Shown here: positions 37,128 to 62,972 of the stretch, one piece after another
Layout of the letters: the number at the start of each line of letters is the position of its first letter
How positions within the stretch are numbered: position 1 is the stretch's first letter
Assembly: GCA_903896585.1 (NCBI GenBank)
Contig: CAITYI010000261.1
Span: forward strand, 400-64,399
Source: an uncultured bacterium
GTDB lineage: Bacteria; Actinomycetota; Actinomycetes; S36-B12
DNA: 64,000 nt
Reading direction: 5' to 3'
Translations under genes and position numbers: made by a program
The notes under the pieces: model-generated
What the model was told of the DNA's origin: nothing
Database searches by the model: none
What the model saw: only the letters and a program-made list of their open reading frames with translations

Positions 37128-38227
37128 TGCCTGTGCCCGGTGAGCTAGTTTTTGAGTCTCCTAAGCGAGGAAAGCCACCTGTTCACTTTCTGGACTTGGA
37201 TCAGAACGGGCGTAAAAAGGCGATTTCCGATCTCGGCATTCCCAGTTTTCGTGCGGATCAGGTTTCACGTCACATTTTTGAGCACCTCGATAAAGATCCA
37301 CAAGACTGGACCGATGTTCCTGTTGAGGATCGATTGCTTATTGTCGACTCCCTCCTACCAACTCTGCTGAGCCCAGTACGTTCAATTGAGTGTGACAATG
37401 GAGAAACTGTGAAGTCGCTGTGGCGCCTTCACGATGGTTCCTTGGTGGAAAGTGTGCTTATGCGATATCCAAGTCGAGTGACCATGTGTATTTCATCTCA
37501 GGCGGGCTGTGGAATGAATTGTCCGTTCTGTGCAACCGGCCAAGCAGGATTAACCAGAAATCTATCCTCGTCGGAAATATTTGGTCAAGTGTTGGCTGGG
37601 GCACAGAGTTTGGCTCGCAATCAGATTGCTGGTGGTCCAGGGCGAGTTTCGAATATTGTTTTTATGGGAATGGGTGAACCATTAGCCAATTACAACGCGG
37701 TGATGACCGCTATTCACCGGATTGTCGACCCCTCGCCATCCGGTCTTGGAATCTCAGCTCGGGGTGTCACGGTTTCGACAGTGGGACTTGTTCCAAGAAT
37801 CAGACAACTTGCCTCTGAGGGCTTGCCGCTCACTTTGGCGGTTTCGCTTCACGCTCCGGATAATGAACTCAGAGATACTCTCGTACCAGTCAATACCCGG
37901 TGGCCGGTCGAAGAAGTACTCGATTCCGCTTGGGAATATGCCCGAGTCACCAATCGCAGAGTCAGCATTGAATATGCACTCATCAGAGATATCAATGATC
38001 AACCTGAGCGTGCGCACCTGTTAGGGGAATTACTAAAAGATCAGTTGGTGCACGTCAACTTGATCCCTTTGAACCCGACACCTGGATCAAAGTGGACAGC
38101 TTCGCGCCCAGAAGCTGAAGCAGCGTTCGTTCGGATTTTGCAGGAACACGGCGTCGCTGTCACGGTGCGGGATACTAGGGGGCGGGAAATTGATGGTGCT
38201 TGCGGGCAACTAGCAGCATTGGAATAG
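37127..38227 (+). CDS. rlmN: 23S rRNA/tRNA (adenine-C2)-methyltransferase RlmN
   Basis: Radical-SAM [11 protein letters not shown] motif. TAATG overlap with the cdsA stop; the track ORF begins at 37073. Confidence 0.92.
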
Positions 38228-38259
38228 ATTCCACCGTGAACACGAAGGAGCGTGGAGCC

Positions 38260-38781
38260 GTGAAGCATGTTGTGAATAAGTCATTAGCCAAGACGCTGCT
38301 GGCGACAATCTTTAGGCTGACACTTTTATTTGCCGTGGTTGCCATACTTCTGGGCAGAATTCCCCAAGAAGACAGAGCATTAGAGTCTTATGGAGTTGTT
38401 GTGGCTTTCGTCATTCTATCTGTTGTGTATGCCTTTTACTTCTTTTTCCAATTACGTGAAATTCGACGTTCCCAGCATCCGCAGGTCAGGGCGACGGAGG
38501 CCATGATTTCCACGGCATTTTTATTCCTTGCTATGTTTGCAACTATTTACACAATCATCAGTGTTGATGATCCATCTTCGTTCACAGAGCCACTCACTTC
38601 ATTTACCGGGCTCTATCTCGCAATCACAGTATTGTCGACAGTTGGTTTCGGTGATATCACACCTGTTTCGGTAATGGCGCGAAGTGTCATCATGGTTCAA
38701 ATGGCATTGGGCTTGGTGTACCTCGGGCTAGTGGTGAAGGTATTTGCGGGAGCAGTTAAGAGTCGGAAGAAAACCGGGTAA
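38260..38781 (+). CDS. small potassium channel family protein (no RCK domain)
   Basis: TM helices flank a pore loop with the selectivity filter TVGFGD. GTG 38260 lies 9 nt after AAGGAG; the track ORF begins at 38200 inside rlmN. Confidence 0.75.
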   Translation: MKHVVNKSLAKTLLATIFRLTLLFAVVAILLGRIPQEDRALESYGVVVAFVILSVVYAFYFFFQLREIRRSQHPQVRATEAMISTAFLFLAMFATIYTIISVDDPSSFTEPLTSFTGLYLAITVLSTVGFGDITPVSVMARSVIMVQMALGLVYLGLVVKVFAGAVKSRKKTG

Positions 38782-38810: not shown

Positions 38811-39929
38811 CTACCGATCTAGGTGTAGGAGTTCAATAATTTCCTGTGAAGACTCGCCAAGTAATGGTGCGGGCACGTAATTTTCCACGGGTGTCGCTGA
38901 CATGATTAACGGGTTGGCTACTTGACCGTTAATGATTGGATCGAGATCCAATCGGCTGGCCAATTTGAACGCTTGATCAATGGAATTTATGGGTCCACAC
39001 GGAACTCCAGCCTCGTTGAGTGAGGAGGTCCACACTGAGGAAGTGTCAGTCTTCAGTCGGTTTTCCAATAGTTCCTTTAACTGCGACCGATTAATCACGC
39101 GGGCTTGATTTGTTGAATACATTGGATCTTTCTCTAGGTTGTTCAATTTAAGAACGTGACACAATTGGGCGAACTGGGAATTATTGCCCACCGCGATCAC
39201 TATTGATTGATCTTGGGTGGCAAAGACTTCATACGGAGCAATACTGGGGTGGACATTACCCATTCGCTGTGGCGTCACACCACCTAATGCAAAAGCCCCA
39301 CTTTGATTGACCATAGATGACAACAAAGCAGAGAGCAGGTTAATCTCAATGTGCTGACCCTCTCCGGAAGATTCTCGAGCATGTAATGCGGCCAGAATTC
39401 CGATTGCTGCGTGCAATCCAGTGACGACATCGACCAAGGCAACACCTACTTTGGTGGGCTCATCAGTCCCGGTGATGCTCATGAGCCCGCCCATTGCTTG
39501 AACAAGTAGATCGTAACCGGGTAATTGACTCCCCGCCTTACTTCCAAAACCGCTAATGCTGCAATAAATCAGTTGTGGATTTACCGCCGAAAGGCTTGAG
39601 TAATCGAGTCCATATCTTTGAAGCGCACCCACTTTGTGATTCTCAACCAAGATATCTGCCTGCCTTGCTAAGTTAACTGCTCGATTCCGATCTCGAACCT
39701 CGGTGAAGTCCAGTGTCAAAGATTTCTTATTTCGATTAACGCTGTCGAAGTAGGTGGAGTGGTTATCGGGAGTCACGGGTGGGATCCATGAGCGAGTGTC
39801 GTCGCCGCTCCCAGGTTTCTCCACTTTAATCACGGTTGCACCCAAGTCGGCTAACAACATGGTTGCATAAGGTCCTGCAAGAATTCGCGAAAAATCCGCC
39901 ACAAGAATCCCGTCAAGTGCCCCAGTCAT
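38811..39929 (-). CDS. family III (CaiB/BaiF) CoA-transferase, glutarate/dicarboxylate type suggested by context
   Basis: GILVADFSRILAGPYATMLLADLGATVIKVEKPGSGDDTRSW N-terminus is typical of the family. It lies downstream of a glutaryl-CoA dehydrogenase. Confidence 0.85.
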   Translation of the reverse strand: MTGALDGILVADFSRILAGPYATMLLADLGATVIKVEKPGSGDDTRSWIPPVTPDNHSTYFDSVNRNKKSLTLDFTEVRDRNRAVNLARQADILVENHKVGALQRYGLDYSSLSAVNPQLIYCSISGFGSKAGSQLPGYDLLVQAMGGLMSITGTDEPTKVGVALVDVVTGLHAAIGILAALHARESSGEGQHIEINLLSALLSSMVNQSGAFALGGVTPQRMGNVHPSIAPYEVFATQDQSIVIAVGNNSQFAQLCHVLKLNNLEKDPMYSTNQARVINRSQLKELLENRLKTDTSSVWTSSLNEAGVPCGPINSIDQAFKLASRLDLDPIINGQVANPLIMSATPVENYVPAPLLGESSQEIIELLHLDR

Positions 39930-39944
39930 GACGTGTCTTTCATG

Positions 39945-39970
39945 TTGTGACCTTAAGCATATTGTGACCT
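39945..39970. repeat. 9-bp perfect direct repeat TTGTGACCT x2 (17-bp period) in the gcdH/CoA-transferase spacer
   Basis: Copies at 39945-39953 and 39962-39970. On the coding (minus) strand this reads AGGTCACAA-n8-AGGTCACAA, ending 15 nt before the CoA-transferase ATG. Confidence 0.85.
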
Positions 39971-39978
39971 CAAGGAAG

Positions 39979-41166
39979 TTACTTGAACGCCGAAATGCCG
40001 GTCAACGCTTGGCCGATTACAAGGGTGTGCATTTCATTGGTGCCTTCATAGGTGAATACCGACTCCAGATTGTTCATGTGACGCATGATTGGATACTCGA
40101 GAGTTATTCCGTTGCCACCCAGAATGCTCCGGCATTCCCGAGCAATTGCAAGAGCCTCTCGCGCATTATTTAATTTTCCGAGTGAAATTTGCTCGGGTGA
40201 TACGCCAGTTGTGTCTTTGAGATTTGCCAAATGAATGGCAAGCAACATGCCTTTACCTAATTCGAGAGTCATGTCTGCCAGTTTTTTCTGCGTCAGCTGA
40301 TACCCGGCAATCGGACGGTCAAATTGCAGGCGATCAATTGCATAAGCAATTGTGGTGTCTAGACAGTCACGCGCTGCTCCCAAAGTACCGAACGCGATTC
40401 CAAATCGCGCTTCATTTAAACATGAAAGTGGGCCACGCAGTCCCCGAACAAGGGGAAGGACTGAGTCTGCTGGTAAGCGTACGTCAGTGAAAACCAACTC
40501 GCTGGTTACTGATGCCCGCAGCGACATTTTTTGGTGAATAAGATTGGCAACGAATCCCGGTGAATCAGTTGGAACAATGAAGCCTCGAATACCTTCATCC
40601 GTTTGTGCCCAGACAATGCAAACATCTGAGACGTTGCCATTGGTGATCCACATTTTGGAGCCATTAAGTATCCAGTCTGCATCCGATGATCCACCATCTC
40701 TGCGGGCATGAGTGCGCATTCCTTGAGGGTTGGATCCAAAATCTGCCTCGGTGAGGCCGAAGCAGCCAACGATGTCGCCCGCAGCCATGCCAGGAAGCCA
40801 CTGATTCTTTTGGTTATCGGAGCCGAATTCATGAATAGCAAACATGGCGAGTGATCCTTGGACACTGACTAGCGAACGAATTCCCGAGTCACCTGCTTCT
40901 AATTCCATAGCTGCTAATCCATATGCCAAGGCAGTAGTCCCGGCGCAGCCATATCCGTCCAAGTGCATTCCGAGTAACCCAAGAGCACCGAAATCCTTGG
41001 CCAATTCACGGGCAGGAATCTCCCCACGTTCAAACCAATCAGCAATATCAGGTTTGATGTGATTCTCTACATAGGCACGGACCACCGATTGAATGGCTCT
41101 ATCTTCCTCTGAGACAAGAACATCGACGTTAAAGAGCGCCAATGGTGAGGTGATGGGGCCGGTCAT
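39979..41166 (-). CDS. gcdH: glutaryl-CoA dehydrogenase-like acyl-CoA dehydrogenase
   Basis: 395 aa, collinear by eye with GCDH: CFGLTEADFGSNP, WITNG, QKKLADM, LGGNGI..EY and YEGT. Confidence 0.85.
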   Translation of the reverse strand: MTGPITSPLALFNVDVLVSEEDRAIQSVVRAYVENHIKPDIADWFERGEIPARELAKDFGALGLLGMHLDGYGCAGTTALAYGLAAMELEAGDSGIRSLVSVQGSLAMFAIHEFGSDNQKNQWLPGMAAGDIVGCFGLTEADFGSNPQGMRTHARRDGGSSDADWILNGSKMWITNGNVSDVCIVWAQTDEGIRGFIVPTDSPGFVANLIHQKMSLRASVTSELVFTDVRLPADSVLPLVRGLRGPLSCLNEARFGIAFGTLGAARDCLDTTIAYAIDRLQFDRPIAGYQLTQKKLADMTLELGKGMLLAIHLANLKDTTGVSPEQISLGKLNNAREALAIARECRSILGGNGITLEYPIMRHMNNLESVFTYEGTNEMHTLVIGQALTGISAFK

Positions 41167-41229
41167 TATGGGTGCCTTTCGAAGGGATCACAGGTGTATC
41201 CGAGTTTAGCCATTTGTTGGCAGATAGCT

Positions 41230-42597
41230 CTATTGGCCAAGGAGACGGCCAACCACTTGAGCCGCCCGTGATGGCTTACCGGTTCTATCTTCGTAGTCAT
41301 CTGCGCGTTGCATGATCTGAAGACCGGCATTTGCCCCCAACCACCGTAGCGGCTCCGGTTCCCATGGGGGAGATTGGTGATCTACCCATGGAAGGGTGGT
41401 GAGTTCGGATTGAGTTTCGGTAATTAAGTGGGCGAGGGTCTTACCGCCAAGGTGGCTGGTGCCGACACCATCACCTACGTAGCCACCGGACCAGCCTTGG
41501 CCGGTACTTCGATCCAGACCACATGATGCCCACCAGTCTCGGGCGATCCCTAGTGGTCCTCCCCAGGTATGCGTCACCCGCGAATCTCTGAGGACTGGAA
41601 ACATGTCCGTGAGAGTTTGCCACAACTCGCGGTGAACCTTGTGGTTTCGGTCTTGAGAGTCCGAAATACGTGAACCAAAAAAATATGGTGCACCGCGACC
41701 ACCAAATGCTATTCGATCGTCGGCAGTTCTTTGCCCATAAATAATGAGGTTCCGATAGTCAGAGAAGGTTTGGCGCTCACGAAGTCCGATTTCATCGATC
41801 TGCGCTCTCGGAATCGGCTCAGTAGCGAGCATAAGTGAATAGACGGGCGCCAAAGTTCGCTTTTGACCGCGAATGGTGCGGGTGTACCCCTCTGTTGCCC
41901 GAATTGTGATTGGCGCCCGGACTGAGCCAGTTCGTGTTCGAATAATCCCCGGCGACATTTCAATCACTGGTGAGTTTTGGAAAAATAGCACACCGTTTTT
42001 TTCGAGGTAGTGCACAAGTTCCTGTACGAGCAGATAAGGATTAATGGCTGCGCAGTGTGGTGTGAATGTGCCACCAAGAACATCAGTGGCCCCCAACTGT
42101 TGGAGTGTCTCTTCTCGATTCAGGTACATCAAATCGCTGCCCAGTCCCCATGACTGCATTTCTAGTACTGCAGCACGAGCACGCTCCTGTTGAATAGGGG
42201 TTCGGGCAGCCACAACAGTGCCACCATGTGCCCAGTCGACACTCCAGTTGTGATCATTTATGACCGCACCAATGTCACTGATGTTGTCCACCATGGCTCG
42301 ATGCATGCGCAGGGCGGCTTGATTGGACGTGGAACGAGCAAGAGCGGTCAAATGAGCAGGAAAGAGAGCAGAGACCCACCCACCGTTACGACCGCTGGCC
42401 CCAAAACCAGGATTGCGGGCATCGACAATACAAATTGCGATTGTTGGATCGAGCTTCTTCAGGTAATAGGCGGTCCACAGTCCGGTGAATCCACCTCCGA
42501 CAACAGCGACATCCGCTGAAATGTTTTCATCCAATGAAGGTCCAACAGGGATTTCACCGGTCATGAGACTTGAGTCGACCCACAGAGATTGATTCAT
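41230..42597 (-). CDS. DAO-family FAD-dependent oxidoreductase (amine/amino-acid oxidase type)
   Basis: VAVVGGGFTGLWTAYYL dinucleotide fold and GASGRNGGW motif. ATG 42597 forms an ATGA overlap with the upstream stop; the track start GTG 42615 is also possible. Confidence 0.75.
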   Translation of the reverse strand: MNQSLWVDSSLMTGEIPVGPSLDENISADVAVVGGGFTGLWTAYYLKKLDPTIAICIVDARNPGFGASGRNGGWVSALFPAHLTALARSTSNQAALRMHRAMVDNISDIGAVINDHNWSVDWAHGGTVVAARTPIQQERARAAVLEMQSWGLGSDLMYLNREETLQQLGATDVLGGTFTPHCAAINPYLLVQELVHYLEKNGVLFFQNSPVIEMSPGIIRTRTGSVRAPITIRATEGYTRTIRGQKRTLAPVYSLMLATEPIPRAQIDEIGLRERQTFSDYRNLIIYGQRTADDRIAFGGRGAPYFFGSRISDSQDRNHKVHRELWQTLTDMFPVLRDSRVTHTWGGPLGIARDWWASCGLDRSTGQGWSGGYVGDGVGTSHLGGKTLAHLITETQSELTTLPWVDHQSPPWEPEPLRWLGANAGLQIMQRADDYEDRTGKPSRAAQVVGRLLGQ

Positions 42598-43268
42598 GTT
42601 TTGTGGGCTTTCCACGTGCGAATATACGCTGGAATGAGAGTGTTTGTTGGCACCTGGGGATCAGGAATTGGATCGCCATATGAATAATTGATGGGTACAA
42701 CCCCAGCCCAAAGATCCCGACCTTGGGGTGTGTGAAGATCCGCTGGGTTATCGTCGGGATCTCCTTCGCCAACTTTCACCGACCATTCGGTGATATTCAT
42801 GGCGAGAGTGTAAGTGGCTTTGAGTTCTTGCGATGTCGGTTGCCGGGCATCATTCCAACGTCCAGGCATGAGATGTTCCGTGATTGTCTGAAGTGCCGCA
42901 ATTTCGGAATCCCCTTCGAGAAGGGTGAAAGTTCCGAAGATCATGACAGAGCGGTAATTCATACTGGATTCAAATAGGCTCCGAGCAAGAACGAGACCGT
43001 CGAGGATCGTCACTGTTGCGCATGCGGGGGACCCTGCGGCTAGGACTTTAAAGAGCCGTGATGCTGCGGAGCCGTGAATAAGGAATTGTTCATTTAAGCG
43101 AGCATAGGCGACCGGAACAACGATGGGGGATTCGTGATCAACGGTTCCGATATGGGCAACTAAACCGGCATCGAGGATCTGATTCATTAGTCCCCGATCC
43201 ACGCTTGCCTTTTCAGGTAGCCGCTTGACTCGAGTGAAGTCTGGGTCACGCATGGTCGGACCCGTCAC
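42594..43268 (-). CDS. pyridoxamine 5'-phosphate oxidase-like (split-barrel flavin/deazaflavin-binding) protein
   Basis: 224 aa. The N-terminal pattern RLPEKASVDRGLMNQILDAGLVAHIGTV...PIVVPVAYAR...LIHGSAASR is typical of the PNPOx-like fold. GTGA overlap with the aminotransferase stop. Confidence 0.65.
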   Translation of the reverse strand: MTGPTMRDPDFTRVKRLPEKASVDRGLMNQILDAGLVAHIGTVDHESPIVVPVAYARLNEQFLIHGSAASRLFKVLAAGSPACATVTILDGLVLARSLFESSMNYRSVMIFGTFTLLEGDSEIAALQTITEHLMPGRWNDARQPTSQELKATYTLAMNITEWSVKVGEGDPDDNPADLHTPQGRDLWAGVVPINYSYGDPIPDPQVPTNTLIPAYIRTWKAHKT

Positions 43269-44665
43269 AGAATTTCGAGGGCACCTGTCAGCACCGTCCG
43301 AAGTTTCTGTTCGATTTCGTCGAATTCAGGTTGCCCAATAATGAGTGGGGGAGCCAACTGAATGACCGGATCTCCTCGGTCATCGGCTCGACAGTAAAGA
43401 CCATTCTCGAATAGTGCTTTGGAGAGGTATCCGCGAAGAAGCCGCTCACTTTCATTTTCGTTGAATGTTTCCCGGGTTACCTTGTCTTTGACCAATTCGA
43501 TGCCATAGAAATAGCCGGCTCCACGAATATCTCCAACAATGGGTAGGTCACTTAACTTCTCCAGCGTTCGGCGAAAATTTCCCTCATTCTCCAATACGTT
43601 TTGATTGAGACCTTCCCTTTCGAAAATATCCAGATTTGCCATGGCAACTGCTGCCGAGACCGGATGACCGCCCCAGGTATACCCGTGAAGGAATGCCGTC
43701 GTCCCATTTTTGAAGGGTTCAAAGAGTCGGTCACTGGCGATCATTGCCCCCAATGGGGAGTAACCAGAGGTCATGCCTTTGGCGCAAGTAATGATGTCCG
43801 GTGTAACGCCGAATCTATTCATGGCAAAGAAGTCACCGATTCGGCCAAATGCCGTAATTGTTTCGTCTGCCACCATGAGAACGTCGTACCGATCACATAT
43901 TTCGCGTACCCGTTCTAAATATCCGGGAGGGGGTGGAAAGCATCCACCGGAGTTTTGTACTGGTTCGATAAAAACCGCGGCGACACTATCGGGTCCTTCG
44001 AACTCTATTGCTTCGGCAATTCGATCGGCGGCCCAAAGACCAAAAGCTTTTTCATCGCCTCGAAATTCTTCGGGAGCACGGTAGAAATTTGTATTGGGTA
44101 CCTTTACTCCTCCGGGAACAAGAGGTTCGAATGGAATTTTCGCAGCGGGAATGCCGGTGATACTCAGCGCACCCTGTGGTGTTCCGTGGTAGGCGATCGA
44201 GCGGCTGATCACCTTGTATTTGGTGGGTTTGCCGGTGAGTTTGAAGAATTGCTTCGCCAGTTTCCACGCAGTTTCAACAGCCTCACCACCACCGGAAGTG
44301 AAAAATACTCTGTTTAAATCGCCCGGTGCTAGGTGGGCGAGGCGCTCCGCGAGCAAAATGGCCTGGGGGTGTGCATAGGACCAGATGGGGAAAAAGGCGA
44401 GCTCCTCTGCCTGTTTGGCGGCAGCTTGCGCAAGTTCCTTTCGCCCATGCCCTGCCTGAACGGTAAACAATCCCGAGAGTCCATCAAAGTACTTATTGCC
44501 TTGATCGTCCCAGATATAAGCACCATCGCCCTTGGTGATTACGGGGACATGTCCACCATCAAAGTAGGTGGAATGCCTGGTGAAATGCATCCAGAGGTGA
44601 TCGCGAGCTTTATCGGCCAAGTTGTCTTGTCCTGATTCGGTCACGTATTGCGGCGTTGTTGTCAT
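43265..44665 (-). CDS. class-III (omega-amino) aminotransferase
   Basis: About 466 aa with SGGGEAVETAWKLA, the DETITAFGR (DE-x-x-x-GR) motif and the PLP lysine context CAKGMTSGY. ATG 44665 forms an ATGA overlap with the Lrp stop. Confidence 0.85.
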   Translation of the reverse strand: MTTTPQYVTESGQDNLADKARDHLWMHFTRHSTYFDGGHVPVITKGDGAYIWDDQGNKYFDGLSGLFTVQAGHGRKELAQAAAKQAEELAFFPIWSYAHPQAILLAERLAHLAPGDLNRVFFTSGGGEAVETAWKLAKQFFKLTGKPTKYKVISRSIAYHGTPQGALSITGIPAAKIPFEPLVPGGVKVPNTNFYRAPEEFRGDEKAFGLWAADRIAEAIEFEGPDSVAAVFIEPVQNSGGCFPPPPGYLERVREICDRYDVLMVADETITAFGRIGDFFAMNRFGVTPDIITCAKGMTSGYSPLGAMIASDRLFEPFKNGTTAFLHGYTWGGHPVSAAVAMANLDIFEREGLNQNVLENEGNFRRTLEKLSDLPIVGDIRGAGYFYGIELVKDKVTRETFNENESERLLRGYLSKALFENGLYCRADDRGDPVIQLAPPLIIGQPEFDEIEQKLRTVLTGALEIL

Positions 44666-45132
44666 CTGGTTCCCCATGTGTAGGTTTGCTTGCGAAGGTT
44701 GAGGTACATGAATGTTTCGGTTGATAACACCCCTGGCATCGATCGGATCTGGCGGTTGACCACATCAAGCAGATGATGATCATCTTCTGTAACGCATTCG
44801 GCGAGGATGTCGTACTTGCCTGCCACCACGACCATGTAGGCAATCTCGGGTAGTTTCTCTAATTTATCTGCCACCGCATCCACATCGCCTTGCACGGTAA
44901 TTCCGATCATGGCTGATCTGGTGAAACCAACCTGTGTTGGATCAGTGACTGCCACAATTTGCATGATGCCCATATCGTGCAGCTTTTGTACCCGTTGTCG
45001 AACCGCAGCTTCGGAGAGACCCACTGCTTTTCCAATTGTTGCGTAAGGGCGGCGACCGTCCTGTTGGAGTTGTTCAATAATGGCTTTTGAAGCGTCATCA
45101 AGTGGAGCGGGTGATGTCCGGGATCTTGCCAT
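44662..45132 (-). CDS. Lrp/AsnC family transcriptional regulator
   Basis: 156 aa with the HTH YATIGKAVGLSEAAVRQRVQKL plus a C-terminal RAM/ligand domain. Confidence 0.88.
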   Translation of the reverse strand: MARSRTSPAPLDDASKAIIEQLQQDGRRPYATIGKAVGLSEAAVRQRVQKLHDMGIMQIVAVTDPTQVGFTRSAMIGITVQGDVDAVADKLEKLPEIAYMVVVAGKYDILAECVTEDDHHLLDVVNRQIRSMPGVLSTETFMYLNLRKQTYTWGTR

Positions 45133-45134
45133 GC

Positions 45135-45150
45135 GTCCATCTTGATGGAC
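45135..45150. promoter_or_regulatory. palindrome GTCCATC-TT-GATGGAC abutting the Lrp start codon
   Basis: Read directly. It occupies -3 to -18 relative to the Lrp ATG (45132), where a Shine-Dalgarno would be expected. An AT-rich spacer with two AAATGTC direct repeats (45192-45198, 45212-45218) follows. Confidence 0.35.
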
Positions 45151-45292
45151 GAAAGTGCATTTGGCAAGTAAATCCGCAGGAAATCAATTAAAAATGTCCG
45201 GAAAACGAATCAAATGTCAGTTTTTACTAATGAAATCACAATCCTGGAGGTAGGCTTCACCAGGAGATATGGCCGATCTGGGAGGAATCACG

Positions 45293-46735
45293 ATGACAAA
45301 AGAGTTAAAGAATTTCGTTGGCGGTGAGTTCGTCTCAACCCGCGATGGAGTGTCAACCGAATTAGTCAATCCGACAACGGGGGAGGTCTTTGCCACTGCA
45401 CCGGTGTCAGGTCCCGCCGATATTGATCAAGCGTATGCCGCAGCGGCCAGCGCATTTGACTCGTGGAAAAACACCACCCCCTCGGATCGCCAGCAGGCAC
45501 TTCTAAAAATCGCTCAAGTGTTTGAAGATCATGCTGAAGAGCTTGTCGCGGTGGAGAGTGAGAATACGGGTAAACCAATCGCGGTCACCATGTCTGAGGA
45601 GATCCCTCCCATGGTGGATCAAATCCGATTCTTTGCTGGTGCGGCGCGGGTACTTGAGGGTAAAGCTGCCGGGGAGTATATGCAAGGTTTCACATCCATG
45701 ATTCGCCGTGAACCCATTGGTGTGATCGGCCAAGTGACTCCGTGGAACTATCCCATGATGATGGCGGTGTGGAAGTACATTCCCGCCATAGCGGCCGGAA
45801 ACACGGTTGTTCTCAAACCGAGCGATACCACCCCCGCATCCACCCTGAAAATGGCTGAACTTATTGCGCAGTCAGATGCACTGCCCCCTGGTGTGCTCAA
45901 TATCGTGTGCGGGGATCGGGATACAGGTAAGGCACTCGTTGAACATAAGACCCCGCAGATGGTGTCAATCACCGGGTCAGTGCGAGCGGGTATGCAAGTC
46001 GCGCAGTCGGCCGCACTTGATGTGAAACGAGTGCATCTCGAGTTGGGCGGCAAGGCACCCGTACTCGTATTTGACGATGCTGATATTGAAGCCGCCGCAG
46101 AGTGGTTGGCGGTCGCTGGGTTCTTCAATGCAGGTCAGGATTGCACTGCTGCAACTCGCATGTTAGTCGCTCCTCGAATCTACGATGATTTTGTTGCTGC
46201 CATGGCGGAGCAAGCAGTGGGTACAGCAACCACCTTCGCCGACGGACCGAGTGGGGAAGGCCTAGTTCCTCCGGTAAACAATATGCACCACATGGATCGG
46301 GTTTTGGGTTTCTTAGAACGCGCTCCCAAACATGCTCAGGTTGTTGCTGGAGGATCTCGTCAGGGAGACCGAGGTTTCTACATCTCACCAACGGTTGTTG
46401 CTGGATTGCAGCAGGAAGACGAAATGATTCAAAATGAAATTTTCGGTCCAGTAATTACAATTCAGAAGTTCGATGATGAAGCCCAAGCACTTGCATATGC
46501 CAATGGAGTGAATTACGGATTGGCGTCCTCGGTGTGGACCAAGGATTTCGGTCGCGCCATGCGAATGGCAAAAGGGCTTGATTTTGGGTGCGTCTGGATC
46601 AATACCCACATTCCGCTAGTGGCAGAGATGCCCCATGGTGGCTTCAAGCACTCAGGCTATGGAAAGGATTTATCCATGTATGGGTTTGAGGACTACACGA
46701 GAATCAAGCACGTCATGGCAAATATAGAGTCATAA
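45293..46735 (+). CDS. NAD-dependent aldehyde dehydrogenase (aminoaldehyde / semialdehyde type)
   Basis: MTKELKNFVGGEFV N-terminus, PWNYP, ELGGKAP and the catalytic Cys in GQDCTAATR. The track ORF begins at 45269. Confidence 0.88.
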   Translation: MTKELKNFVGGEFVSTRDGVSTELVNPTTGEVFATAPVSGPADIDQAYAAAASAFDSWKNTTPSDRQQALLKIAQVFEDHAEELVAVESENTGKPIAVTMSEEIPPMVDQIRFFAGAARVLEGKAAGEYMQGFTSMIRREPIGVIGQVTPWNYPMMMAVWKYIPAIAAGNTVVLKPSDTTPASTLKMAELIAQSDALPPGVLNIVCGDRDTGKALVEHKTPQMVSITGSVRAGMQVAQSAALDVKRVHLELGGKAPVLVFDDADIEAAAEWLAVAGFFNAGQDCTAATRMLVAPRIYDDFVAAMAEQAVGTATTFADGPSGEGLVPPVNNMHHMDRVLGFLERAPKHAQVVAGGSRQGDRGFYISPTVVAGLQQEDEMIQNEIFGPVITIQKFDDEAQALAYANGVNYGLASSVWTKDFGRAMRMAKGLDFGCVWINTHIPLVAEMPHGGFKHSGYGKDLSMYGFEDYTRIKHVMANIES

Positions 46736-46809: not shown

Positions 46810-48036
46810 TTAGTTGCCACCCTCATTGAGTGTGACCTCAATGGGTGCGTATCCGTCACCCGTTACGTTGAGACCTTCTGCAGTCAGTGCTGCATCGGCC
46901 GCCTCTGCGTATTGATTTGTGTACGACTCCGCATCTGGTGCGGCTGAAACAATTGCAATGCCGTCTAGGTTCTTGGTGCCGGTAGCAACTGCAACCGTCT
47001 GATCCCAAAGGACAGGATCAATAACGCCAATGCCGGAAGGTGATGGCCAGATCAGTTTGTTGACCTCGTTCATCATCCAGAGTTGGTGGCTGGCTCCAAG
47101 TTTTGAACCGTTTGCCGTAATGATGTCTGCACATTGCTGTGCGTTATCGCGGCAGTGGATCCAGCCCTTGAGTGAAGCGGTTACGAATCGCTGGGTGGTG
47201 TCCTGATAGGCAGGATCGCTCAATCGCTCTTGCGAAGCCCAAATGGCATCCTGGTACATGGCAACACCAAAGTCGTTCCAGTTGATGACATTGAAGTCTT
47301 CTGGCTGGTACAACTCGCCGGTCTCTGGATTGACTGCTTCCAAAACCTGGGCATACTCGTTGTAGGTCATGGCCTGGGCAGCATCGATATCGCGGCTCAA
47401 CAGCGCTTGCATATCAAATTGCTGCTGCACGAGTTCCAGATCACCTGAGGCGTCCAGTCCCGCTCCACTGATTCCAGCGAACAGTTCGTATTCGTTACCG
47501 AATCCCCAGTTACCGACCTTTTTGCCGGCGAGATCTTCAGGTGTTGTGATGCCTGAATCAGCCCACGAGACCTGAAGGGTGCCGGAGCGTTGGTAGACCT
47601 GCGCCACGTTAGTAATCAAAGCTCCTTGCTCCCGTGAGGAGAGCGCCTTGGGTACCCACGCAATGGCGAAGTCCGCTCCACCCTGTGCAAGAACTGTCTG
47701 GGGAACAATGTCCACGCCACCTTCAAGGATGGTGACGTCAAGGCATTGTTCTTCGTAGAACCCAAGATCCTTGGCGGCGTAATAGCCACCAAATTGGGCT
47801 TGCACGAACCACTGCAGTTGCAAACTGACAGGTGTGAGTTCGGTGCATGCAGCCGCAGTTTCATCTGTGGCCGTTTCAGTTGCTGTCTCTTCAGCAGCAG
47901 TCTCTTCAGCAGCGGCGGCGGTTTCGGTTGCAGCATCGGTGCTGTCCGAATCACTACTGCACGCTGATAGAGCGAGAGCTGCAACTGCTGCAATACCCAC
48001 TACTCGGGTAAAGCGGCTACGAGCTGTTACGCGCAT
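46810..48036 (-). CDS. ABC transporter substrate-binding lipoprotein, NMT1/THI5/ThiY-SsuA-like
   Basis: ATG 48036 follows AGGAGGA. Signal peptide with lipobox LSAC, then a low-complexity Thr/Ala/Glu linker. The core QLQWFVQAQFGGYYAAKDLGFYEEQCLDVTILEGG resembles the N-terminal motif of TauT/NitT-family binding proteins. The track ORF begins at 48111. Confidence 0.8.
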   Translation of the reverse strand: MRVTARSRFTRVVGIAAVAALALSACSSDSDSTDAATETAAAAEETAAEETATETATDETAAACTELTPVSLQLQWFVQAQFGGYYAAKDLGFYEEQCLDVTILEGGVDIVPQTVLAQGGADFAIAWVPKALSSREQGALITNVAQVYQRSGTLQVSWADSGITTPEDLAGKKVGNWGFGNEYELFAGISGAGLDASGDLELVQQQFDMQALLSRDIDAAQAMTYNEYAQVLEAVNPETGELYQPEDFNVINWNDFGVAMYQDAIWASQERLSDPAYQDTTQRFVTASLKGWIHCRDNAQQCADIITANGSKLGASHQLWMMNEVNKLIWPSPSGIGVIDPVLWDQTVAVATGTKNLDGIAIVSAAPDAESYTNQYAEAADAALTAEGLNVTGDGYAPIEVTLNEGGN

Positions 48037-48055
48037 TGTTCCTCCTGTTTGTGAT

Positions 48056-48832
48056 TCAGGTCGACCGAGACCGACCTGTCCATGGTGTTGTCCATTTTTC
48101 AAGGGCCACAACTATTAAATAGAAGATGAGACCAGTGATAATGGAAGCAACCACGTACGCCCAAGCTCGGCCGTACGCAGTGTTGGCAGCCGCACCTGCT
48201 ATTCGGCTGCCAAGTCCTTCTTGGGGTCCGCCGAAATACTCGGCAACCAGTGCTGCAATGACCGCGAGGGGTGCAGCGATCTTGAGTCCGGTAAAAAAGA
48301 ATGGAATAGCATTTGGAATTCGTAAAACTCGCAGTGTCATGCGGGGCTTGGCGTTCAAGGAACGCATCAGTTCTAATTGCACAGGCTGCACCTGCAATAA
48401 GCCTCGAGTGACGTTCACGAACATGGGGAACAGCACAATGATCATGGTCACCAGGACCCTTGGAGTTCGGCTGGTGATGTTGAACATGTTGTTCAGTATG
48501 GGAGTCAATGCGATAATGGGAACTGTTGCCAGCCCCGCTGCTAGTGGGGTAATCAGACGATTAACCACAATCAATCTTTGGGCCAGCAGGGACATGATTA
48601 ATGCTGCAATGGTTCCAAAGACTAATCCGAGAAATGCGGTGGTGCCCGTGTAATAAGCAGCTGCCCACATCAGGGATACGTCAGAAGTGAAGTTTTCAGC
48701 AATCAGTGACGGAGCCGGCAGTAGGTAGGGCTGGATATCATTAGCAATGACGAGCAACTGCCATGCACCAAGGAATAGTGCAGCGATCAGAACAGGCGGC
48801 CAAATAAGGCTCAAGCTAAGGCGTTTGGTCAT
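48056..48832 (-). CDS. ABC transporter permease (TauT/NitT type)
   Basis: 258 aa, polytopic, with the binding-protein-dependent EAA-like loop (MRSLNAKPRMTLRVLRIPNAIP). TAATG overlap with the ATPase. Confidence 0.85.
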   Translation of the reverse strand: MTKRLSLSLIWPPVLIAALFLGAWQLLVIANDIQPYLLPAPSLIAENFTSDVSLMWAAAYYTGTTAFLGLVFGTIAALIMSLLAQRLIVVNRLITPLAAGLATVPIIALTPILNNMFNITSRTPRVLVTMIIVLFPMFVNVTRGLLQVQPVQLELMRSLNAKPRMTLRVLRIPNAIPFFFTGLKIAAPLAVIAALVAEYFGGPQEGLGSRIAGAAANTAYGRAWAYVVASIITGLIFYLIVVALEKWTTPWTGRSRST

Positions 48833-49650
48833 TAGACCTCACCAATTCTGGTGTGATTTCCCCCTGCGGAGCGACCACGCAAAGCTTCCCGAACCTCGGT
48901 GACACCTGAATAAAACGCATCGGTTTCTCGAGTATCCTCGTTTCGTTCTCCCAGATTGATGTCCACAATCCCAGTAATCCGTCCCGGACGAGCAGACATC
49001 ACCACCACCCGATCTGACAAATAGACGGCTTCGGGAATTGAGTGAGTCACAAATACGATTGTTTTGCCTGTCTCAAGGCGAATGCGAAGAAGTTCATTTT
49101 GCATTCTTTCCCGAGTCATTTCGTCGAGGGCACCAAATGGTTCATCCATGAGCAAGAGAGGGGGATCCACAGCCAATGATCGGGCAATGGCAACTCGCTG
49201 TTGCATTCCTCCAGACAGTTCCCACGGGCGGTGATTGGCGAAGTCGGCAAGTTGAACCATTTCCAGGAGCTCGAGGGCGCGAGCAGCTCGTCGCTTTTTG
49301 TCCCAGCCGAGCAACTCGAGTGGCAACTCAACGTTCTTAACAACGGTTCTCCAGTCAAAAAGGGCAGCCTGCTGGAAGGCGATTCCATAGAGTTGTTGGA
49401 CTCGAGCCTCGTGGGGGCTCACTCCGGCAACTTCAACGACACCTCGAGAAGCGTCCGTCAAGTCACCAATGACCCTGAGTAGTGTGCTCTTGCCGCAACC
49501 TGAAGGCCCGATGAGCGAGATAAATTCCCCGGCAATGATGGTGAGGGAGACATCAGAAAGCGCCGTTACTTCATTGCTGGCACCTTCATTGAAAATCTTC
49601 CAGAGTCCTTCAACAGAAACCGCTTGGCCTCCGGCTGGCACGTTACTCAT
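48832..49650 (-). CDS. ABC transporter ATP-binding protein
   Basis: GPSGCGKST, LSGGMQQRVAIAR and LLMDEPFGALD motifs. Confidence 0.92.
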   Translation of the reverse strand: MSNVPAGGQAVSVEGLWKIFNEGASNEVTALSDVSLTIIAGEFISLIGPSGCGKSTLLRVIGDLTDASRGVVEVAGVSPHEARVQQLYGIAFQQAALFDWRTVVKNVELPLELLGWDKKRRAARALELLEMVQLADFANHRPWELSGGMQQRVAIARSLAVDPPLLLMDEPFGALDEMTRERMQNELLRIRLETGKTIVFVTHSIPEAVYLSDRVVVMSARPGRITGIVDINLGERNEDTRETDAFYSGVTEVREALRGRSAGGNHTRIGEV

Positions 49651-50510
49651 GCCTTTCCTTCCTTGGGGAGATTGCGAGTGAGATACATATCTAAGGCAGT
49701 TACCAGTGCGGTTGCGACCAGTCCAAGGAGGATTGCGCCAAATACCGCGACATAAACCTTGGCAGGTTGGGAGGTTGTTTCGCGAGCATATTCAATTATC
49801 AGCCTACCGATACCACCTTTCACACCGGTGGATATTTCTGCCACCACGGTGCCAACTACGGCTGCGGCAATGGAAACCTTGAGCGCTGGCACCAAATATG
49901 GAATTGATGAGGGGAAGCGTAATTTCCATAGAACTTGTTTCGGTGTGGCTGCATAGGATCGCATGAGTTCCAGTGACGTGGGGCGTGGTGCCTGCAGCCC
50001 ACGGAGGGCACCGACGGAAAGTGGGAAAAATGCAAGATATGCCGCAATAAACATGACGGAATATGTGGTGGTCCAGGACACTGGGCCAAACGAAACACGG
50101 TTGCCGAGACCAACAATAAGTGGGGCAAGGGCAATTAATGGCACTGTTTGCGATGCAATCACAAAAGGAAGCAGGCCCCTTTCAAAGAAATAGAAGCGCT
50201 GCATGATGATGGCCAAAAGCAGTCCCACACTGACACCGATGATAAAACCACCGAAGGCAATCAAAAGCGAGTATGCGGCGGCGCTTAAGACTGCTTCCAA
50301 AACACTGGTATCCGAGCCACGTACCTCAGGATTGCCAAATGCCGAAACCATGCTCCACACATGTGGCATGGAGGTGTCATCGGTCTTAAGTGGAAGCTCA
50401 ATTAACGAGCCAATGAATTTGACAAGCTCCCACATGATGAGGACGAGCGCAACCCCTGCCAGAGCCCACAGGGATGAAATTGTGATCCTCCGCAAGCGGG
50501 TAGTTTTCAT
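49647..50510 (-). CDS. ABC transporter permease (second subunit)
   Basis: 287 aa, polytopic, with the EAA-like loop MRSYAATPKQVLWKLRFPSSIP. ATGA overlap with the ATPase start. Confidence 0.85.
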   Translation of the reverse strand: MKTTRLRRITISSLWALAGVALVLIMWELVKFIGSLIELPLKTDDTSMPHVWSMVSAFGNPEVRGSDTSVLEAVLSAAAYSLLIAFGGFIIGVSVGLLLAIIMQRFYFFERGLLPFVIASQTVPLIALAPLIVGLGNRVSFGPVSWTTTYSVMFIAAYLAFFPLSVGALRGLQAPRPTSLELMRSYAATPKQVLWKLRFPSSIPYLVPALKVSIAAAVVGTVVAEISTGVKGGIGRLIIEYARETTSQPAKVYVAVFGAILLGLVATALVTALDMYLTRNLPKEGKA

Positions 50511-50519
50511 GCGGTAGCG

Positions 50520-51539
50520 CTACTCCTTTGCCAAAACGACATCTGTAATCGAGGGAATAATGTGCTCACCATACTCAGAAAGAGTGTGATCCTTGTCATC
50601 GTGTTGTAAATAAAGGGCAAACTGATTAACGCCGAGCGCTTTGAGTTCTTCCAAGCGACGGATGTGTTCTTCAGGAGGCCCGATAATGCAGAATCTGTCA
50701 ATGATTTCGTCCGGCACGAAGTCGGTGTGCGTATTTCCAGCCTGACCATGCTGGTTGTAGTCGTAGCCTTGGCGATTCTTGATGTAATCGGTGAGAGCCT
50801 GAGGAACGGCACCACCATTATCGCCATAGCGTTCAACAATGTCAGCCACGTGATTGCCAACCATGCCACCAAACCACCTCAGTTGGTCTCGGGCGTGGGG
50901 TATGTCATCGGTGACGTACGCGGGAGCAGCGACGCAAATATAGATAGAGTCAGGATCTCTTCCGGCTGCTGCGGCCGCGTCCTTCACGGCTTTGATGGTC
51001 CACTCAGCGATAGAAGGGTCGGCGAGCTGCAAAATAAAGCCGTCCCCAACTTCGCCGGTAAGGGCAAGAACTTTGGGTCCATATGCCGCGACCATGACAT
51101 CTGCTCGACTGCCTGGGGCCCAAGGTAAACGGAGGCTATTACCTTTGTAATCAACAGTCTGTCCGTTTACCAGACCCTTGAGATCGATTACTGATTGGCG
51201 TAGGTCAGCAACTGAAACAGGCTTGCCATTGGTTACTCGCACCGCAGAATCACCGCGGCCAATGCCAATGACGGTTCTATTTCCGTACATTTCATTGAGT
51301 GTCGCGAAAACAGAAGCGGTCACCGTGATATCACGGGTCGCTGGGTTTGTGACCATGGGACCGACTTTTACTTTGCGAGTTTCATCAAGAATTTTGCTGT
51401 AGATGACATACGGTTCCTCCCACAGAATATGTGAGTCAAAGGTCCAGATGTAGGTGAACCCAAAAGTCTCCGCACGCCTGGCAAGATCAATGACTCGGGC
51501 AGCAGGAGGTGTGCACTGAAGTACGACTCCAAATTCCAT
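50520..51539 (-). CDS. luciferase-like (LLM) flavin/F420-type oxidoreductase, Mer-like subgroup
   Basis: 339 aa. MEFGVVLQ...FGFTYIWTFDSH...KVGPMVTNPATRDITVTASVFATLNEMYGNRTVIGIGRGD is collinear by eye with methylene-H4MPT reductase-type LLM proteins. The cofactor cannot be decided from sequence. Confidence 0.8.
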   Translation of the reverse strand: MEFGVVLQCTPPAARVIDLARRAETFGFTYIWTFDSHILWEEPYVIYSKILDETRKVKVGPMVTNPATRDITVTASVFATLNEMYGNRTVIGIGRGDSAVRVTNGKPVSVADLRQSVIDLKGLVNGQTVDYKGNSLRLPWAPGSRADVMVAAYGPKVLALTGEVGDGFILQLADPSIAEWTIKAVKDAAAAAGRDPDSIYICVAAPAYVTDDIPHARDQLRWFGGMVGNHVADIVERYGDNGGAVPQALTDYIKNRQGYDYNQHGQAGNTHTDFVPDEIIDRFCIIGPPEEHIRRLEELKALGVNQFALYLQHDDKDHTLSEYGEHIIPSITDVVLAKE

Positions 51540-51601
51540 GGTGGGTAATCCTTCCTTTCAGTTGGTTGACGAGCCTGGTGGTGAATAAAACTAGCGAATC
51601 A

Positions 51602-53089
51602 TTATCGGGTAAGTGGAAAGCCCAAATCCACAGATGAAGTTGACGGATCTGGCCACCGTGAAGTCACAGTTTTGGTATGCGTGTAGAAATCAATGCCCGC
51701 AGGTCCGTACATGGCAACATCTCCGAAAAGCGATGCCTTCCAGCCACCGAAACTGTAGTAGCCGACTGGAACTGGAATGGGGACATTTATTCCAACCATT
51801 CCTACCTGGATATCAAATTGGAACTGTCGAGCTGCGCCACCATCTCGAGTGAAAATCGCAGTACCATTTCCGTATTGGTGATTGTTGATCAATTCAACGG
51901 CATCGTCATAGGTTTCAACGCGCGTCACACTCAGTACCGGCCCAAAAATTTCATCGTCATACACCTTCATTCCAGGCGAGACGTTGTCCATCAGAGTGGG
52001 AGCGAGGAAAAATCCTTCTGCTGGAAGATTGTTCTCACGTCCGTCCACCACAACTGTGGCGCCTTCTGCTGCCGCACCAGAAATGTATGAAGCGACTTTA
52101 TCTCGATGCTCCCTCGTGATTAACGGTCCCATTTCGGCATTGGGGTCGGTTCCCGGACCCGTGATGAGTTTTGGCAGGCGTTCTTTGATGGCCTCAATCA
52201 ACTTGTCGCCAACACCACCCACTGCGACTACAACAGAGATAGCCATGCAGCGCTCACCGGCTGATCCGAAACCCGCACTTACGGCTGCATCGGCGGCCAT
52301 ATTGATGTCGGCATCGGGAAGAACCACCATGTGATTCTTAGCGCCACCTAGTGCCTGCACTCGCTTGCCGTTGGCTGTTCCAGTGGAGTAAATGTATTTA
52401 GCAATTGGTGTTGATCCCACGAAACTGATGGCTGCGACATCAGGATGCGCGAGTAAGCCGTCGACTGCAATTTTATCGCCTTGAAGCACGGTGAAAACTC
52501 CATCGGGCAGTCCAGCTTTTTGCAGAAGTTCAGCCAGGTACAGCGCAACGGAGGGATCTTTTTCACTGGGTTTCAAAACAAATGCGTTACCAGTGGCGAT
52601 TGCATTAGCAAACATCCACATGGGCACCATGGCAGGGAAATTAAATGGTGTGATACCTGCTACAACACCAAGAGGTTGGCGAATTGAGTAAACATCTACG
52701 CCAGTGGAAACTTGCTCGCTGTAGCCGCCTTTGAGGAGAGCCGGAATGCTGCAGGCGAATTCAATGTTCTCAATTCCACGCGCCAGCTCACCCGCGGCGT
52801 CGCTGGGCACTTTGCCGTGTTCGATGGACACCAGATTGGCAATGTGATCCCGATTCTGGACAACTAATTCACGGAAACGGAACATGATCTCGGCTCTTTT
52901 TGAAATCGATGTTGCTCGCCACATCTGCGAGACAGCCTTGGCCGATGCAATTGCGAACTCCACTTCCTCGGCGCTGGCGAGACCAACTTGTGCCTGCTGT
53001 TCCCCGGTCGCGGGGTTATAAACAGGGGCGAAGTTTCCAGATTTCGAGGGATGAAGTTTTCCATTGATCCAATGGTCGATATTGCGCAT
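51602..53089 (-). CDS. mmsA: CoA-acylating methylmalonate/malonate-semialdehyde dehydrogenase
   Basis: MRNIDHWINGK N-terminus, FNFPAMVPMWM and the catalytic Cys in GERCMA. The track ORF begins at 53128. Confidence 0.85.
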   Translation of the reverse strand: MRNIDHWINGKLHPSKSGNFAPVYNPATGEQQAQVGLASAEEVEFAIASAKAVSQMWRATSISKRAEIMFRFRELVVQNRDHIANLVSIEHGKVPSDAAGELARGIENIEFACSIPALLKGGYSEQVSTGVDVYSIRQPLGVVAGITPFNFPAMVPMWMFANAIATGNAFVLKPSEKDPSVALYLAELLQKAGLPDGVFTVLQGDKIAVDGLLAHPDVAAISFVGSTPIAKYIYSTGTANGKRVQALGGAKNHMVVLPDADINMAADAAVSAGFGSAGERCMAISVVVAVGGVGDKLIEAIKERLPKLITGPGTDPNAEMGPLITREHRDKVASYISGAAAEGATVVVDGRENNLPAEGFFLAPTLMDNVSPGMKVYDDEIFGPVLSVTRVETYDDAVELINNHQYGNGTAIFTRDGGAARQFQFDIQVGMVGINVPIPVPVGYYSFGGWKASLFGDVAMYGPAGIDFYTHTKTVTSRWPDPSTSSVDLGFPLTR

Positions 53090-53155
53090 TCTGTCTCCAG
53101 ATTTAGTTGGTTGTTGGTGAGTGAACATTTGCCCGTTGAGTGCGAAGTGATGCTG

Positions 53156-54574: not shown

Positions 54575-54606
54575 GGCTGCTCCTCGTTGTTCTCCAAGTT
54601 GGCTAA

Positions 54607-56982: not shown

Positions 56983-57046
56983 CGTTTTTGGGAGACTGCG
57001 TCCACGGGATGACTTTAGATCGGGCCGGGAGAACAGGGGAGTGACA

Positions 57047-58567: not shown

Positions 58568-58739
58568 CAGCGACGACACGAAGTTGTTACATAATTTGTA
58601 CTCAATAAACTGAAGGTAGCCAGCTTTACCGACTACCGTTGGCGAAGAGATACAACCATCAGGCCGGACAAAGTGGCCCGTAATGAAAACGCTCGTCTTG
58701 GAATGTTCGTATTGAAATTCGCATAGGAGAGGAAAGACC

Positions 58740-59945: not shown

Positions 59946-59991
59946 CGTTTTCAACTGTGTGGATCAAATAACTTGAACTTAACAGTGTGCC

Positions 59992-61158: not shown

Positions 61159-61160
61159 CG

Positions 61161-62881: not shown

Positions 62882-62972
62882 TAGTCTTTTTGCTTTAGTA
62901 CTTGAAGGGATTGGTGGGAAGGTCAGGCGGTCGGTCTGCCCCATTACGTGAACTCTGACGTAAGGAATTCCC

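Follow-up and report, generated by a model that had tools for sequence, protein, structure and literature searches.

Genes and junctions of the locus

This analysis concerns a putative amine-catabolic gene cluster on contig C261 of a Candidatus Nanopelagicales metagenome-assembled genome (MAG; 2.39 Mb, 90.8% complete), of which a stretch of 64,000 nucleotides (nt), referred to here as the window, was examined. Six co-directional genes and a divergent seventh make up the cluster, which we are somewhat inclined to read as a polyamine/diamine gene set that adjoins a pair of glutarate genes. The features are as follows:

38811-39929, minus strand: family-III coenzyme A (CoA)-transferase (PF02515)
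39979-41166, minus strand: predicted glutaryl-CoA dehydrogenase (gcdH; GCDH), with three acyl-CoA dehydrogenase (ACAD) domains and a match to M. smegmatis GCDH
41230-42597, minus strand: DAO-family flavin adenine dinucleotide (FAD) oxidoreductase (PF01266); a longer open reading frame (ORF) starts at GTG 42615
42594-43268, minus strand: PF12900 PNPOx-like split-barrel protein of the MSMEG_4975/Anf3 class
43265-44665, minus strand: class-III omega-transaminase (NF005102); a longer ORF starts at ATG 44677
44662-45132, minus strand: Lrp/AsnC regulator, first cistron, with HTH_AsnC and AsnC_trans_reg domains
45133-45268, no strand: divergent control region of 136 nt between the regulator and the aldehyde dehydrogenase, defined by position only
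45269-46735, plus strand, divergent: PatD-like omega-aminoaldehyde dehydrogenase (ALDH; PRK13473)

A preliminary description of this DNA had reported six co-directional ORFs with three 4-nt overlaps, spacers of 63 and 49 nt and a divergent ALDH, all of which were found exactly as described, and its family assignments were upheld throughout when checked with Pfam and NCBIfam models. The overlaps read in the sequence are ATGA (44662-44665), GTGA (43265-43268) and ATGA (42594-42597), and the spacers separate DAO from gcdH (41167-41229, 63 nt) and gcdH from the CoA-transferase gene (39930-39978, 49 nt). Overlaps of 4 nt are common in bacterial operons and are therefore statistically unremarkable here, so that it is their conservation that counts. 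Among 20 genomes of the order the ATGA overlap between Lrp and transaminase was kept in 18, and the junction from PNPOx-like gene to DAO was tight in all relatives (-4 to +26 nt). The transaminase to PNPOx junction varied from -16 to +97 nt, which makes the GTGA start of the PNPOx-like ORF less certain, and an ATG lies 15 nt downstream. The overlapped starts of the transaminase and DAO match the N-termini of their relatives. Terminator- or promoter-like sites were found in neither the 63-nt nor the 49-nt spacer by a scan that is a weak test, and the same weak scan scored no sigma-70-like site in the divergent control region.

Our analysis of the transaminase showed a score of 806.8 bits against NF005102 (PRK06541; cut-off 574) and a match to the Streptomyces amine transaminase Sbv333-ATA (PDB 9gh9) at E 1e-232 over residues 15-462, with approximately 75% identity as judged by eye. 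Sbv333-ATA accepts cadaverine, propylamine, gamma-aminobutyrate (GABA) and beta-alanine (PMC12343752), and the window protein is likely its ortholog, that is, a pyruvate-dependent polyamine/omega-amino-acid transaminase. Solved beta-alanine:pyruvate transaminases are also clear homologs. The divergent ALDH passed the cut-off of the PRK13473 aminobutyraldehyde dehydrogenase subfamily (701.9 bits, cut-off 615) and fell below that of the TIGR03374 equivalog (558.9 bits, cut-off 909.3), its structural matches being PDB 6c43 (E 1.9e-150) and E. coli YdcW/PatD (1wnb; E 2.2e-147). The PatA/PatD-like logic proposed earlier for these two genes fits both results, with a transaminase about three-quarters identical to Sbv333-ATA and an ALDH above its subfamily cut-off.

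The regulator contains both an N-terminal AsnC-type helix-turn-helix (PF13404) and a C-terminal ligand-binding alpha/beta domain (PF01037/PF22482), reaches no NCBIfam equivalog cut-off, and has Pyrococcus PH1519 as its closest solved structure (E 3e-21). A regulator 68% identical to it occupies the same position in a Streptomyces-like genome of 9.2 Mb (locus L164), and the window protein is a probable counterpart of S. coelicolor SCO5656 (EpuRII).

The acyl-CoA dehydrogenase of the locus is strongly predicted, by every available sequence test, to be a glutaryl-CoA dehydrogenase of the decarboxylating type (EC 1.3.8.6), as the preliminary description had proposed. It matched M. smegmatis GCDH (3swo) at E 1.6e-182 and human GCDH (1siq) at E 4.7e-107, with short-chain ACADs at 1e-60 or weaker, and two of its motifs align with those of the human enzyme, DSG-x-RS with the equivalent of Arg94 and TYEGT with the equivalents of Tyr369 and Glu370. 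In human numbering we take Glu370 to be the catalytic residue, which Tyr369 precedes, and Arg94 to hold the substrate carboxylate. Genes for electron transfer flavoprotein (ETF) alpha and beta subunits occur in the MAG as two separate pairs on contigs C371 and C441; at an estimated MAG contamination of 3.4% these may be true paralogs or a binning duplicate.

The neighbouring CoA-transferase matches PF02515 over its full length (residues 5-359, E 3.8e-110) and human SUGCT (9br7) at E 4.7e-79, and its best NCBIfam model is that for succinate-glutarate CoA-transferase (NF052585; 357.1 bits). It is probably of the succinyl-CoA:glutarate (GcdG/SUGCT-like) type. The Pseudomonas gcdHG operon has a GcdR regulator. 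The combination of GCDH with a family-III CoA-transferase in Pseudomonas gcdH-gcdG and human GCDH/SUGCT matches the window pair, which differs from the Pseudomonas system in that the window genome has no dedicated regulator, relatives use one of the GntR/FCD type, and the CoA-transferase scores below its equivalog cut-off.

The two flavoproteins

The preliminary description had left both flavoproteins of the locus unexplained, which no longer applies to the DAO-family enzyme and still applies to the PNPOx-like protein. PF01266 spans the whole of the DAO protein and its best NCBIfam model is the aminophosphonate oxidoreductase TIGR03329, the cut-off of which it does not reach (224.2 bits, cut-off 632.8). 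Identity to E. coli PuuB is 26% (E 2e-26), and a paralog elsewhere in the window (DAO2) is nearer to PuuB (31%, E 5e-43). A search for close solved structures found none, and protein-atlas clusters for this protein carried generic names only. On this evidence the DAO protein is predicted to be an FAD-dependent amine oxidoreductase, PuuB/PbfD-like, of an uncharacterised subfamily. Characterised relatives in the DAO family oxidise primary or N-methyl amines, and the resulting imines hydrolyse to aldehydes; some of these enzymes are dehydrogenases for which no electron acceptor is known (PMC10590968). A full-length DAO fold is common to PbfC/PbfD, the TIGR03329 enzymes, PuuB, MabO and the window protein; in contrast to aminophosphonate oxidoreductases, which provide the best model, the window protein is far below the TIGR03329 cut-off and has no phosphonate genes nearby.

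Pseudomonas can begin the breakdown of putrescine and cadaverine with either of two kinds of deaminase, the transaminase SpuC or the DAO-family PauB enzymes (PMC10606097), and oxidative deamination parallel to transamination, with the same pairing of enzymes, is the role that we propose for DAO here. The systems SpuC/PauB1-4/KauB of Pseudomonas and PatA-PatD with GabT-GabD of E. coli use an omega-transaminase followed by an aminoaldehyde dehydrogenase, after which another transaminase and another dehydrogenase act, as would the window genes. However, PauB and PuuB act on gamma-glutamylated amines, and the island around the cluster contains neither a gamma-glutamyl ligase (PuuA/PauA) nor a hydrolase (PuuD); regulation is also Lrp-type, in place of the PuuR or LysR-type regulators of the E. 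coli and Pseudomonas systems. A gamma-glutamylation route was considered and rejected, the only pair of glutamine synthetase-like and C26-hydrolase genes found being one that adjoins an ethanolamine permease on contig C188. That region (C188:1-5650; L131) appears to be an ethanolamine-type cluster of permease, glutamine synthetase-like ligase, ALDH, SDR and a C26 hydrolase fragment at the contig end, and resembles the Streptomyces GlnA4 system. A literature search on bauB/PA0131 returned unrelated work only.

The PNPOx-like protein matches MSMEG_4975 (PDB 4ybn; E 5.2e-44) and Azotobacter Anf3 (PDB 6rk0; E 4.9e-34), and 15 orthologs all share its His65, Arg16 and Lys165. His65 falls at the position of the proximal haem ligand (His62 in MSMEG_4975, His70 in Anf3), and Arg16 and Lys165 are conserved basic residues that match the haem-propionate binders of these two proteins. 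MSMEG_4975 and Anf3 are PNPOx-fold haem b/FAD flavocytochromes, and the window protein shares their proximal histidine and both basic residues that hold the propionates (PMC6579470); it thus probably binds FAD and haem b. Unlike Anf3, which is tied to Fe-only nitrogenase, and MSMEG_4975, which has no known role, the window gene lies inside a putative amine-catabolic operon.

Within the cluster this gene is always placed between transaminase and DAO, and in a class-wide sample of 20 loci it was present in 6 of the 9 with DAO after the transaminase, as against 1 of the 11 without. An obligate partnership between the two proteins is rejected by PNPOx-free genomes that keep DAO: in four of the five genomes with transaminase and DAO and no adjacent PNPOx-like gene, two of the four being complete single contigs, no PNPOx match was found genome-wide (E <= 1e-10). 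DAO therefore does not require the PNPOx-like protein. A complex prediction for the two proteins from two alignments gave a score of 0.00 and was uninformative either way. Three distant representatives of the family (40-46% identity) included one in an unrelated neighbourhood and another on an 835-bp contig; other genes of the cluster were not seen near two homologs at 50-54% identity (Marmoricola and a Propionibacteriales MAG), the neighbourhoods of which were too ORF-dense to read.

Apparent gene fusions were set aside as evidence of a functional link, for PNPOx-DAO and transaminase-PNPOx alike, as probable frameshift or gene-calling artefacts. PNPOx and DAO form a single frame of 672 amino acids in genome G035 (L037:9114-11129) and of 679 amino acids in the public protein P0005. 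Many genes on the contig of P0005 are broken, and the P0005 linker resembles a translation in the wrong frame; the G035 linker departs from the C-terminus of the PNPOx family, and a frameshift or recent loss of a stop codon is likely in that frame. Fusions of transaminase and PNPOx are rare and single-member.

The PNPOx-like protein might accept the electrons of amine oxidation from DAO and, like Anf3, pass them to oxygen with water as the product, so that no hydrogen peroxide is formed, an idea that we consider rather improbable. If true, the MSMEG_4975 class would thereby gain its first physiological function other than the protection of nitrogenase. An argument for peroxide avoidance from the absence of catalase was dropped, as the MAG has a full KatG; a search of the MAG for a monofunctional catalase found none. 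The PNPOx-like protein is the one truly unexplained element of the locus.

Conservation of the locus and its genomic setting

The order was sampled as the 20 genomes above and then as 80 species representatives, in which the unit formed by the Lrp-transaminase-PNPOx-DAO run and its divergent ALDH is nearly constant. The position of gcdH was scored in 54 related loci, one per species, that had a DAO ortholog and enough flanking sequence. It lay on the same strand and no more than 200 nt after DAO in 15 loci, on the same strand at 0.9-6 kb in 19, and on the opposite strand in 14, with no gcdH within 3 kb in the remaining 6. By comparison, gcdH and the CoA-transferase gene were no more than 2.5 kb apart in every related locus compared (32/32), and they are also paired in G024, G035 and G039, although in G035 the pair is on a different contig from the core. 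The closest relative, G020, keeps the six-gene arrangement of the window. Four relatives of the same genus as the window (L023, L025, L038 and L040) carry an opposite-strand cation-efflux gene between DAO and gcdH, so that gcdH must have its own promoter in these loci.

Many relatives from other families carry the pair on the opposite strand as a CoA-transferase-GntR/FCD-gcdH-ALDH unit, the ALDH of which is 2,5-dioxovalerate-dehydrogenase-like. The suggestion that the six genes form one conserved operon is not supported, as there are relatives in which the gcdH pair is separated, inverted, equipped with its own GntR regulator, or not found. In many relatives this opposite-strand unit (L096:12061-17489) also has a THAP4/nitrobindin-like haem-binding protein, of which the MAG has no ortholog.

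Of the Actinomycetes sampled, 89 of 151 genomes and 59 of 96 genera had a transaminase ortholog (E <= 1e-150, 65-82% identical, at one place per genome). This conservation is unusual for a catabolic enzyme, with 91-98% identity in the genus and 65-82% across the class, and the neighbouring DAO and PNPOx-like proteins drop to approximately 50% identity where the transaminase keeps 65-82%. The class-wide neighbourhood sample, whose 20 loci came from 16 families, had Lrp directly upstream of the transaminase in 15 loci, with a 4-nt overlap in 11 of these (10 ATGA, 1 TTGA). The ALDH was divergent from Lrp in 13/20, pot-type transporter genes lay within 18 kb in 12/20, and DAO followed the transaminase in 9/20. 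A nearby gcdH was found in 3/20 loci, and a second aminobutyraldehyde dehydrogenase, agmatinase or GabT accompanied the core in some. The core is far older and more widespread than its junction with gcdH, and the regulator-first, translationally coupled layout, thought uncommon in the preliminary description, is standard for this gene family across Actinomycetes.

The Streptomyces-like locus L164 has transaminase and Lrp with a divergent ALDH beside an ABC ATPase gene, which is the published SCO5654-5657 layout. In S. coelicolor, SCO5655 is described as a polyamine-induced pyruvate-polyamine aminotransferase, SCO5656 is the Lrp/AsnC regulator EpuRII that binds promoters of polyamine genes, and SCO5657 is an aminobutyraldehyde dehydrogenase (PMC5403932, PMC8998196, PMC9397018). 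The three families are common to the window, with transaminase and regulator co-directional, ALDH divergent (in L164) and polyamine transport genes close by. Unlike the window, the L164 trio has no adjoining DAO, PNPOx, gcdH or CoA-transferase gene, and the enzyme functions of SCO5655-5657 are predicted rather than assayed in S. coelicolor.

On contig C261 the cluster is flanked on the left by rpsB-tsf-pyrH-frr-cdsA-rlmN, and rlmN is separated from the CoA-transferase gene by a 193-amino-acid ORF (38200-38781) that encodes an Ion_trans_2 (potassium-channel pore) domain and keeps this position in the order at only 37-66% identity. To the right of the divergent ALDH follow a reductive pyrimidine (pyd) operon with an ABC importer (46810-55443), a MocR regulator and a module that was assigned from family hits:

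57041-63998, plus strand: second aminobutyraldehyde dehydrogenase (ALDH2), PotD/A/B/C-like importer genes and a second DAO (DAO2)

The pyd operon encodes a dihydropyrimidinase, a carbamoyl-amidase and an MMSDH-type dehydrogenase and contains no transaminase. Beyond the window the contig continues with an agmatinase gene (TIGR01230, above cut-off), a convergent gabT (PRK06058; 724 bits, cut-off 639) and dxr-rseP-ispG-proS. Full-length DAO2, agmatinase and GabT (C261 63372-67330; L129:1373-5331) look like a set for converting agmatine and putrescine to succinate semialdehyde. The region from 38200 to 64000 of the window, and on to approximately 67330 (L129), forms one island of amine and pyrimidine catabolism, inserted between rlmN and dxr. 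The divergent ALDH has the pyd genes as its neighbours in many Nanopelagicales, and directly the ALDH2-potDABC module in relatives that lack the pyd insert. The genome has several other class-III transaminases in addition to GabT on contig C261.

Interpretation of the arrangement

The explanation that we hold to be somewhat better than even is that two catabolic modules, a polyamine/diamine core and a glutarate pair, have been brought together head-to-tail in this genus of Nanopelagicales. The first module, comprising the divergent ALDH and the Lrp-transaminase-PNPOx-DAO run, would represent the actinobacterial aminotransferase route of polyamine/diamine breakdown. From the observed family identities, catalytic and ligand residues, gene architecture and cross-genome conservation we infer the substrates and order of steps given here, together with any joint transcription of the modules and any role of the flavocytochrome. 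Translation of the EpuRII-like Lrp would be coupled to that of the transaminase, and this regulator presumably acts on both of the divergent promoters. The nearby Pot-type system probably takes up a diamine, for example putrescine or cadaverine, which would then be deaminated to an omega-aminoaldehyde. Two enzymes could carry out this deamination, the pyruvate-type transaminase or, by oxidation, the FAD enzyme of the DAO family, to which the PNPOx-like haem/FAD flavocytochrome would be a non-essential accessory. The PatD-like ALDH would convert the omega-aminoaldehyde to an omega-amino acid (GABA or 5-aminovalerate). A second transamination to the semialdehyde, by the same broad transaminase or by GabT just beyond the window, and a further aldehyde dehydrogenase step would then yield succinate or glutarate. 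The second module would take the C5 product, with glutarate activated from succinyl-CoA by the CoA-transferase and glutaryl-CoA oxidatively decarboxylated to crotonyl-CoA by GCDH, which would pass electrons to ETF.

Routes from lysine and cadaverine to glutarate are described in two publications (PMC6265302, PMC6218589). A route from diamines to glutaryl-CoA is plausible in this genus, and co-transcription of the gcdH pair with DAO is possible, because here the pair no longer has a regulator of its own and follows DAO after 63 nt. Enzymes of the PatA/PatD and GabT/GabD types handle both the C4 and the C5 series. The specificity for C5 compounds put forward in the preliminary description stems solely from the juxtaposition of the gcdH pair; the core points to polyamines in general, because class-wide it travels with pot-type genes and in some loci with ALDH2, agmatinase or GabT.

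Several observations weigh against the two-module explanation. The score of the CoA-transferase is less than half the NF052585 cut-off of 750. Neither an ortholog of the relatives' GntR regulator nor a 2,5-dioxovalerate-dehydrogenase-like ALDH was found in the MAG, and the lack of the latter leaves the glutarate-semialdehyde step without an assigned enzyme. A search of the 90.8%-complete MAG for a PF01276 lysine decarboxylase found none, so that the cell would depend on external sources for any cadaverine. Genome G037 (97% complete) has the core, and no GCDH or CoA-transferase match was found in it. Common descent of the related genomes may also account, without selection, for much of the gene order that they share. 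The orthology with SCO5655-5657 is deduced from the protein families, the gene order and the Streptomyces-like genome of L164.

Alternatively, gcdH and the CoA-transferase may be functionally unrelated neighbours of a core that handles C3/C4 amines only, the pair serving glutarate or glutaryl-CoA derived from lysine via 2-oxoadipate, from tryptophan or from external glutarate. We regard this as unlikely, though by no means negligible. It would account for the separate GntR regulator and ALDH of the pair in many relatives, for its location on another contig in G035 and the lack of a match in G037 when both genomes have the core, for the rarity of gcdH near the core class-wide, and for the putrescine-type character of the core's companions, which are steadily pot genes and sometimes ALDH2, agmatinase or GabT. 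It fits less well with the persistence of the pair close to the core through many rearrangements within the order (48 of the 54 loci), or with its loss of regulator and ALDH behind DAO in this genus. The CoA-transferase, moreover, implies free glutarate, the known sources of which are 5-aminovalerate routes that need a transaminase and an ALDH.

The opposite extreme, a single dedicated six-gene operon under Lrp control and specific for the conversion of cadaverine or lysine-derived 5-aminovalerate to crotonyl-CoA, seems improbable to us. The genes are all co-directional with short spacers and no terminator-like site between them, G020 keeps the arrangement, and gcdH follows DAO within 200 nt in 15 of the 54 related species. 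However, an opposite-strand gene intervenes between DAO and gcdH in the four same-genus loci named above, the core is far older and wider spread than the gcdH junction, and the nearest transaminase of known activity has a broad substrate range that is not confined to C5 compounds. Equally low in our estimation is the view that the transaminase is mainly a beta-alanine:pyruvate transaminase with diamines as side substrates. The enzyme would then supply the CoA-acylating pyd dehydrogenase with malonate semialdehyde and would also handle beta-alanine that comes from spermidine or 1,3-diaminopropane. The pyd operon without a transaminase of its own, its position against the divergent ALDH in many Nanopelagicales, the acceptance of beta-alanine by Sbv333-ATA and the homology to solved beta-alanine:pyruvate transaminases are all consistent with such a role. 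Outside the order, however, the transaminase-Lrp-ALDH trio occurs with pot genes in place of pyd genes, the genome has several other class-III transaminases including GabT on the same contig, and DAO, gcdH and the CoA-transferase would be left unexplained.

In summary, what is new at this locus is a variant arrangement in which a widely conserved polyamine/diamine gene set, itself mostly ordinary, adjoins a glutarate pair. It is important to note that a co-directional run of genes in one genome does not amount to a conserved operon. With its very high conservation, single location in each genome and translational coupling to Lrp, the transaminase provides a class-wide anchor for an under-studied actinobacterial polyamine pathway that has so far been known mainly from Streptomyces expression data. 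The locus also gives an orphan family of haem-flavin proteins a specific metabolic context that is open to experiment. Freshwater Nanopelagicales are abundant, and a defined route for the use of polyamine carbon and nitrogen helps in reading their ecology.

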